Part shown: one piece after another, positions 52,214 through 53,653 of the stretch
Position numbering within the stretch: position 1 is the first letter of the stretch
Layout: every line of letters starts with the position of its first letter
Sequence record: PQ657772.1
Direction: 5' to 3' (one strand)
Length of the DNA: 64,000 nt
Source of the DNA: Escherichia phage EC.P1
Program-made: the position numbers and the translations under genes
The notes under the pieces: model-generated
What the model saw: the letters and a program-made list of their open reading frames with translations, nothing else
Databases searched by the model: none
Told to the model about the DNA's origin: nothing

Positions 52214-53653
52214 TTACATATTTTCTTCAGCAAATTCTGCCAGTGGTGAACGAACGACACCTTCTAGTTCGATTACACGACAACCGTCCCAGTTCTTGAA
52301 CTTCTCGGTAACATAAGTTAGACCGCTGTTAACTGGACTAATGAATTTAGAGTCAATCTGGCTCAAGTTGCCCATAATAACCACTTTACAGTTCATTCCT
52401 GCACGAGTCAGGATTGTTTTAGCCTGAGCAGGAGTAATGTTCTGGAATTCATCCACTACTAGGATAGTGTTTGTGAAAGAACGCCCACGAACGAAGTTTA
52501 GTGCTTTGAACTGGATAACATTACGTTTCATGATTTCTTCGATACTGCCTTGTGGGTTAGCATCATCTTTGTGTAGGAATTCCAACGCATCAATGGCAGC
52601 TCCACAGAATGGAATCACCTTCTCTGCCTCAGAACCTGGCAAGAAACCAATGTCTTCGAATTGGGAATCTTGTGTTTTGGAGAAGATGATACGGTCGTAT
52701 TTTTTCTTCTCTAGTACTAGCTCCAGTGCAGTAGCAATGGTGATCAATGTTTTACCAGTACCTGCGGAACCCAACAGTACTGTTAGATGAACATCAGGAT
52801 CTAGAATACTGTTGATTGCTAGTGCTTGTTGAATATTCTTAGCCTTAATATCCCACACTTTAGCACGTAGAGCAACAGATTGTCCAATATCTTGGAATAC
52901 AAGAATATCTTCTGGTGTTAAAGTACCATCATCTTCTTCAATTGCAGATTGGCCTTCGTACACAAATAGAACATCAGCATTATCATATAGGTAATCACCG
53001 ATGCAAATATTTTGTGGCATGATATGTTCAATCAAGCTTTTTGGAATGTAGTGATACAAACGGCGACCAACTTGTTCAGATTGGATAGACACATCAGTTA
53101 GATTGCTATACACATCCCAAAAATCTAGGTCGAGGTGATGTTGACCAATGTGAATCAAATCACTATCACCAATCACGATATCATGACGATAATCTTGAAC
53201 TTCCACCCCGTAGCTTAGAGCCTTGATACGCATATTGATATCACGGGTAACCAGTACTGAATCAGTTGCTAATGCTACTAAAATGATTTTATCATCTGGT
53301 ACTGTGCTTTTTAGAAGAGTTTGAACTTTCTCTTCGTTACCAGCAGTACGAATTAGTGCTTCAGCTTCTTCGCTTGTAATAACAAACAATTTGCTTTCAG
53401 GACTCATATTAGTATGAACATCAGCAATATTAACACCAGTACTACTAATTTCTTCATGTGATGCATCAGAAAGGATAGCTTCAATGTTACGGATTGCAAC
53501 ACGAGCATCACGGGAAACATCCACATTACGACTTTTGATTGAATCCAATTCTTCAAGTACTGTGAACGGTAGAATGATAGCTGCTCCATCAAAAGCAATG
53601 GTAGCATTTGGATCAGATAGTAGTACGTTTGTGTCAATTGTATATTTTTTCAT
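52214..53653 (-). CDS. phoH: PIN-PhoH fusion protein (PhoH2/YlaK-like ATPase)
   Basis: 479 aa; N-terminal PIN-like region; Walker A GSAGTGKT in C-terminal PhoH domain. Confidence 0.8.
   Translation of the reverse strand: MKKYTIDTNVLLSDPNATIAFDGAAIILPFTVLEELDSIKSRNVDVSRDARVAIRNIEAILSDASHEEISSTGVNIADVHTNMSPESKLFVITSEEAEALIRTAGNEEKVQTLLKSTVPDDKIILVALATDSVLVTRDINMRIKALSYGVEVQDYRHDIVIGDSDLIHIGQHHLDLDFWDVYSNLTDVSIQSEQVGRRLYHYIPKSLIEHIMPQNICIGDYLYDNADVLFVYEGQSAIEEDDGTLTPEDILVFQDIGQSVALRAKVWDIKAKNIQQALAINSILDPDVHLTVLLGSAGTGKTLITIATALELVLEKKKYDRIIFSKTQDSQFEDIGFLPGSEAEKVIPFCGAAIDALEFLHKDDANPQGSIEEIMKRNVIQFKALNFVRGRSFTNTILVVDEFQNITPAQAKTILTRAGMNCKVVIMGNLSQIDSKFISPVNSGLTYVTEKFKNWDGCRVIELEGVVRSPLAEFAEENM

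Follow-up and report, generated by a model that had tools for sequence, protein, structure and literature searches.

We analyzed a 64,000-nucleotide (nt) window from Escherichia phage EC.P1 (PQ657772.1) and, with high confidence, identified the product of the minus-strand gene at 52214..53653 as a phage member of the PhoH2 family, a PIN-PhoH fusion of the COG1875 type (PIN_4.COG1875 group; Matelska 2017). The protein joins a PIN fold to a PhoH fold in one chain, and the locus as a whole is very probably best explained by a PhoH2-family PIN-PhoH enzyme that acts on RNA, with terminator and promoter punctuation after the gene. The gene and the parts of its product were located as follows.

52214..53653, minus strand: PhoH2 gene, an ATG-to-TAA open reading frame (ORF) of 479 amino acids (aa) plus the TAA stop
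53186..53644, minus strand: PIN_4 (SMG6-like) nuclease domain, residues 4-156 (Pfam)
53633-53635, 53549-53551, 53294-53296, and 53240-53242, minus strand: PIN catalytic acidic residues D7, E35, D120, and D138, respectively
52850..53185, minus strand: middle segment, residues 157-268, predicted to be mostly beta strands (secondary structure of AlphaFold models)
52235..52849, minus strand: PhoH P-loop ATPase domain, residues 269-473 (Pfam PF02562)
52748-52771, minus strand: Walker A motif GSAGTGKT, from residue 295
52448-52465, minus strand: Walker B motif ILVVDE, from residue 397

The initial annotation, made from the sequence alone, had placed a PIN-like nuclease domain ahead of the P-loop ATPase and named Pfam searches as the check, and these recovered both domains in that order, with scores above the gathering thresholds and far above chance. 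The PIN_4 match covered the whole profile (1-132 of 132) with an E-value of 4.5e-20 and 72.7 bits against a gathering score of 21.9, and the PhoH match (PF02562) had an E-value of 8.6e-45 and 153.2 bits against 27. The ATPase domain of Corynebacterium glutamicum PhoH2 (PDB 3b85) was matched in sequence (E 2.5e-23) and was also the top Foldseek match. That the protein is a fusion and not a plain PhoH, as also proposed, was borne out by the presence of the PIN domain and by the plain-PhoH model NF007827 (PRK10536), which reached 95.4 bits, below its cut-off of 380. Among the phage protein families, phrog_2765 matched over the full length (E 1.2e-161; residues 1-479 against profile positions 2-443 of 443) and the plain-PhoH family phrog_170 with an E-value of 2e-59. 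The top NCBIfam model was NF053827 ("RNA 5'-3' helicase PhoH2") at 155.7 bits, which falls short of the equivalog cut-off of 680; the phage protein is therefore a distant relative of the characterized enzymes and not their equivalog.

Conservation was judged from 45 aligned full-length homologues, the most distant at 43% identity. The PIN acidic residues D7, E35, D120, and D138 were invariant in this alignment and in sub-alignments of 13 and 14 sequences, and the 45 homologues also shared without change the Walker A residues G295-x-A-G-x-G-K301, Walker B D401-E402, Q404, R417, GFLPG (336-340), and RGRS (389-392, including R389 and R391). Because the PIN acidic residues and the Walker motifs are invariant, both catalytic centers of the protein appear intact as judged from sequence. 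The middle segment was poorly conserved, with D163, G170, and W267 as its only invariant residues; it matched no known family, and its profile gave no significant match among PDB sequences.

The gene call itself is well anchored, with an AAGGA Shine-Dalgarno (SD) site 6 nt ahead of the ATG, and the start codon is sound since phage homologues share the MKKY N-terminus. Orthologues were identified as Ecwhy_1 gp299, 121Q gp480, and RaK2 ORF506. The window belongs to a jumbo coliphage of the genus Asteriusvirus. In DNA, the region matches Ecwhy_1 (MH791411), which has a coding sequence annotated at this position, with 99.8% identity, and 121Q and PBECO4 with about 85% identity; the annotation in these relatives reads only "PhoH-like protein" (121Q gp480). 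A crude ORF call put 96 of the window's 100 ORFs of 60 aa or more on the minus strand.

The homologue search scored 8000 candidates, 4436 of which had E-values of at most 1e-5, and essentially all of the 120 homologues listed combined PIN_4 with PhoH. The listed homologues included all Rak2-like jumbo phages (RaK2, K64-1, GAP32, CBB, the pEa_SNUABM phages, and phages of Yersinia and Serratia) as well as Vibrio jumbo phages. Chromosomally encoded proteins were also listed, from Pseudoalteromonas, Shewanella, and Colwelliaceae, and these were 41-43% identical over the full length. With the PIN domain alone as tblastn query, a homologous domain was found at the PhoH N-terminus in 279 phage records, among them T4-like phages of the RB16/RB43/KP15 type. 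The Rak2-like proteins are orthologues, with 64-95% identity and conserved synteny, and the other phages of phrog_2765 (RaK2 ORF506, GAP32_122, CBB, the Vibrio jumbo phages, and the RB16/RB43/KP15-type phages) carry the same family, with nothing essential different.

The PIN-PhoH fusion is thus already known as a named and well-populated family, and the present copy is one more orthologue. PIN-PhoH proteins were reported in bacteriophages by Matelska 2017 (PMC5499597) and noted in jumbo phages by Iyer 2021 (PMC7824862), who called their role "enigmatic" and suggested the clearing of jammed ribosomes or post-transcriptional regulation. The same paper gives as its example of a jumbo-phage SIR2 the Ecwhy_1 Sir2 protein QAY00582.1, whose gene lies about 1.2 kb upstream of PhoH2, so this genome region has been analyzed before. 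Some GenBank records already read "PINc domain-containing protein" or, in one case, "NYN ribonuclease and ATPase protein". The gain is therefore chiefly for annotation, as most GenBank records say "PhoH-like phosphate starvation-inducible protein", a label that hides the nuclease domain and implies an unsupported role in phosphate metabolism.

Beyond the stop codon, the initial annotation had assigned PhoH its own palindromic element. A hairpin does exist there, and it is of the terminator type, overlaps the promoter-like site of the next gene, and is not PhoH's own. The two elements are located as follows.

52186..52211, minus strand: perfect 11-bp stem with a 4-nt loop, 2 nt past the PhoH2 stop codon
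52178..52205, minus strand: sigma-70-type promoter-like site for a downstream 65-aa gene, from a promoter scan, overlapping the 3' half of the hairpin

On the coding strand, the palindrome reads ATGTATGGGAC-ATTC-GTCCCATACAT, with 11 perfect pairs of which 5 are G-C, and the RNA of the region has a folding energy of -18.6 kcal/mol (z = -3.9 relative to shuffled sequences). No U-tract was found after the stem, where the tail GAUAUAAU has 3 U in 8 nt, and the terminator scan did not list the site. A known RNA family was rejected for the hairpins of this locus, as Rfam gave only matches below threshold and at chance level (preQ1-II, 23.5 bits against 47; tsr26, 29.7 against 141). The promoter-like site consists of a -35-like GGGACA inside the hairpin, a 16-nt spacer, and the extended -10 TG-a-TATAAT at 52178-52186, so that the stem runs straight into the extended -10 sequence TGATATAAT.

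All relatives examined likewise have a hairpin immediately past the PhoH2 stop. GAP32 (TTTTTT) and Serratia phage BF (GTTTTATT) have canonical terminators with a GC-rich stem and a T-run at the equivalent site, RaK2 has a terminator with a U-tract followed by a separate perfect TTGACA-17-TATAAT promoter, and phage A4, with an unrelated stem sequence, keeps both a hairpin and a perfect TTGACA-17-TATAAT promoter. Within the window, 7 of the 10 strongest perfect hairpins lie in intergenic gaps just past minus-strand stop codons, most with A- or T-run flanks. The motif TGNTATAAT occurs 17 times against 6.2 expected (about 2.7-fold); the minus (coding) strand carries 16 of these copies, and most copies read TGATATAAT, which suggests a family of host-RNA-polymerase promoters throughout the block. 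Since both classes of element recur across the window, the hairpin and promoter are read as ordinary terminator-plus-promoter punctuation. The 52186-52211 palindrome is a terminator-type hairpin at the end of a transcription unit and is not PhoH-specific, and in Asteriusvirus the terminator and promoter parts are compressed into an overlap.

The same overlap could be read differently, as the perfect 11-bp inverted repeat spans -35 to -12 of the promoter-like site and is followed by no U-tract, both of which would fit a protein-binding DNA operator that controls the promoter of the small downstream gene in place of an RNA hairpin or terminator. We consider such an operator improbable. An A-to-G change in phage TH47 keeps the pairing only as G.U in the coding-strand RNA and makes a mismatch in the DNA palindrome, which argues for structure at the RNA level and against a DNA operator. 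Further, the A4 stem is entirely different in sequence with the hairpin still there, the equivalents in GAP32, BF, and RaK2 are canonical terminators apart from any promoter, and similar hairpins stand behind many other genes of the window. The strongest hairpin of the window, at 57680-57715, pairs perfectly over 16 bp (AAAAGAAAAAGGAGCC-TTAT-GGCTCCTTTTTCTTTT) and is flanked on either side by A- and T-runs; it abuts the gene at 57715..57918 and resembles an intrinsic terminator that works in both directions.

The RNA helicase/nuclease role put forward in the initial annotation is the best-supported one that we infer for the protein, from mycobacterial PhoH2 (PMC7390352) and from the intact-looking active sites. 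Mycobacterial PhoH2 is a sequence-preferring RNase and an ATP-dependent helicase on RNA duplexes with a 5' overhang; the R339A mutant, in Mycobacterium smegmatis numbering, is helicase-dead, and in the proposed model a hexameric PhoH ring threads unwound RNA into a ring of PIN domains (PMC7390352). The phage polypeptide begins with a predicted metal-dependent PIN endoribonuclease, continues through a beta-rich connector, and closes with the PhoH P-loop ATPase, and by analogy with the mycobacterial enzymes it would most likely assemble into a ring. It would bind single-stranded RNA, with ATP hydrolysis driving 5'->3' translocation and unwinding, and the unwound strand would be fed to the PIN domains for cleavage. 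Its task could be the turnover of host or phage transcripts or the clearing of structured or stalled RNA. As sigma-70-type promoters serve the region, PhoH2 would be made early by the host RNA polymerase. The hairpin after the gene most likely ends or stabilizes the PhoH2 transcript, and the overlapping extended -10 promoter would restart transcription for the 65-aa gene. A PhoH2-type RNA helicase-nuclease with apparently intact sites is a candidate for phage control of RNA turnover, and a cultivable coliphage of this kind is a convenient system for the study of phage PhoH2.

Several points weigh against this explanation. The enzymatic activity of the phage protein is presumed from its mycobacterial relatives, and, given how distant these are (155.7 against 680 bits), its substrate preference and polarity may differ. 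Early expression is suggested by promoter-like motifs, and termination at 52186-52211 may be weak, partial, or factor-dependent because of the missing U-tract. Mycobacterial PhoH2 has been proposed to be a toxin whose VapB-like inhibitor is the product of phoAT, a short gene co-transcribed from just upstream; phoAT is absent here, and the toxin-antitoxin logic therefore does not carry over.

Compared with known systems, the protein has the same order as PhoH2 of M. tuberculosis and M. smegmatis (Andrews & Arcus; PMC7390352), an N-terminal PIN RNase followed by a C-terminal PhoH helicase/ATPase, and shares with them the PIN acidic residues, Walker A and B, and, probably, arginine-rich motifs. 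The invariant R389, R391, and R417 are candidate counterparts of the arginines for RNA binding and helicase activity, among which R339 is essential in M. smegmatis. In contrast to the mycobacterial genes, the phage gene has no co-transcribed upstream phoAT antitoxin, and it resides in the genome of a lytic jumbo phage. Two stretches are longer in the Rak2-like phage clade than in the cellular proteins, namely the PIN domain, through an insertion of 17-25 residues around 93-118, and the connector. The gammaproteobacterial PIN-PhoH proteins (Pseudoalteromonas, Shewanella), which we take to be of the COG1875/YlaK type, have the same Pfam architecture at 41-43% identity and 100% coverage and, like the phage gene, lack an antitoxin partner, whereas they are encoded by stand-alone chromosomal genes divergent from rapA and have a shorter PIN insertion and connector; as far as the searchable literature shows, no member of this group is characterized. 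In a Pseudoalteromonas sequence (L019) and a Shewanella-like contig (L020), the neighbor rapA encodes the RNA-polymerase-associated SNF2 ATPase, and PIN-PhoH is followed by the gene of a large hybrid sensor kinase, an arrangement common to the 2 genera. Plain PhoH (PhoH/YbeZ; phrog_170; PRK10536) has the ATPase domain in common with the phage protein and lacks the PIN domain and connector. The PIN domain of SMG6/EST1A (PDB 2dok/2hww) belongs to a eukaryotic nonsense-mediated-decay endonuclease without an ATPase, and archaeal PINA (PDB 5f4h), a RuvB-like Holliday-junction helicase per its PDB entry, superposed poorly overall (TM about 0.22).

PhoH2 stands at the end of a block of genes on the same strand, which we located as follows.

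54892..55644, minus strand: Sir2
54344..54895, minus strand: Nudt16-like Nudix
54014..54334, minus strand: cREC_REC "cyclic-phosphate processing receiver" protein (cREC)
53715-54017, minus strand: 100-aa protein, rich in Cys and with a hydrophobic segment at its N-terminus, annotated as a membrane protein
53654..53714, minus strand: PhoH2 leader, the 61 nt between the 100-aa gene and PhoH2

The Sir2, Nudix, and cREC genes have overlapping stop and start codons, and the order Sir2-Nudix-cREC-PhoH2 is kept in RaK2 and GAP32, with RNA ligase and NAMPT nearby. The Nudix and cREC parts appear fused in GAP32 (GAP32_120, 906 nt, 301 aa), the 3' part of which matches the cREC protein of the window at 62% identity; in the window and in RaK2, the 2 parts are separate genes. 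The 100-aa protein has the cysteine pattern GQC...C.F.Y...QECW...C and no Pfam match, and was also identified between cREC and PhoH2 in RaK2, GAP32, and L014 (39-46% identity), being replaced or missing elsewhere. cREC also stands ahead of PhoH2 in 3 metagenomic jumbo-phage contigs with PhoH2 46-49% identical to the present one. Each has cREC no more than about 400 nt upstream, immediately adjoining PhoH2 in L017, and a gene for NAMPT, Sir2, or an Acb1-like phosphoesterase in the vicinity.

This neighborhood allows for a more specific role, in which PhoH2 is part of a phage NAD+/ADP-ribose (ADPr) or RNA-end module and, together with Sir2, Nudix, and cREC, processes modified RNA ends or NAD-capped or ADP-ribosylated RNA, or counters NAD+-depleting or RNA-cleaving host immunity. 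The Nudt16-like Nudix would then be a decapping enzyme or an ADPr-hydrolase and cREC a predicted cyclic-phosphate phosphoesterase. The same-strand, overlapping arrangement directly upstream, the order kept in RaK2 and GAP32, the close cREC in the 3 contigs, and the nearby NAMPT, Sir2, or Acb1-like genes would all suit such a module, and Iyer 2021 ties cREC to NAD+/ADPr enzymes and RNA ligases, in a text without mention of PhoH2 (PMC7824862). The contigs, however, probably belong to one broad clade of related jumbo phages, and neither L018, a Vibrio jumbo phage, and T4-like RB16 nor the cellular homologues showed the cREC-PhoH2 linkage; inheritance of the gene order within that clade is therefore the simplest explanation. 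A 61-nt gap and a non-homologous spacer gene also separate cREC from PhoH2 in several lineages. Moreover, PIN nucleases leave 3'-OH/5'-phosphate ends, which differ from the cyclic phosphates of the predicted cREC role. We therefore hold the module to be a doubtful reading and give equally little credence to its corollary, that in Rak2-like jumbo phages PhoH2 handles RNA within a conserved island of early genes (NAMPT, Sir2, Nudt16-like Nudix, cREC, and PhoH2). If true, the island would handle NAD-derived RNA modifications or caps, or repair or clear RNAs damaged by host immunity, and the order of cREC then PhoH2 would reflect a functional pairing of which the searchable text gives no earlier description.

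On the other side of PhoH2 lies the small Lys-rich gene served by the promoter-like site.

51950..52147, minus strand: small Lys-rich gene of 65 aa (121Q_481 homologue), SD site AAGGAG
51834-51855, minus strand: terminator-like site of the 65-aa gene, with a T-run

The protein (MAKQPKKK...LRKQGVLTRAQYREIVAQKGYWGI) had no Pfam match, and, with an extended -10 promoter and a T-run terminator, its gene appears to be a monocistronic unit of its own. Homologues come after PhoH2 in RaK2 and a Vibrio jumbo phage and were also identified near it in contigs L014-L016. A role as conserved PhoH2 partner was rejected, as L014 and L015/16 have 2 genes inserted between it and PhoH2, and GAP32, Serratia BF, and RB16 lack it; its place near PhoH2 is regarded as inherited collinearity and not as a tight module. 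In RB16 (L012, 4885-5266), 2 small genes follow PhoH2, RB16p144 and RB16p143, which are paralogues with CxxC...CPxC spacing that look like zinc ribbons and bear no relation to the jumbo-phage Lys-rich gene.

That PhoH2 is instead a toxin-antitoxin-like or abortive-infection-type PIN toxin, with a small neighbor such as the 65-aa protein as its inhibitor, has the mycobacterial proposal as precedent and is very unlikely, since no VapB- or PhoAT-like gene lies upstream (where the 100-aa Cys-rich protein is encoded), the 65-aa gene has its own promoter and terminator and the patchy distribution just described, the closest cellular homologues are stand-alone genes beside rapA, and PADLOC matches were weak and confined to the P-loop. 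The "toxin-antitoxin" label should accordingly not pass to phage PhoH2. Identity with a defense system was likewise rejected, since the sole PADLOC matches, to Nhi and AbiO, were confined to about 50 residues at the P-loop (E 1e-6 to 1e-7).

A promoter scan found no convincing promoter in the leader at 53654..53714, and PhoH2 is therefore probably co-transcribed with the upstream genes. The leader contains a hairpin (GAGTACA-AGGA-TGTACTC, 53672-53689) and the AAGGA SD site, and it folds at -18.3 kcal/mol (z -2.8), with the SD site and AUG paired to sequence around the upstream stop codon. Translational coupling through this structure was rejected, as the structure is not conserved in relatives; several of these instead have a small leader hairpin with the SD site in its loop.

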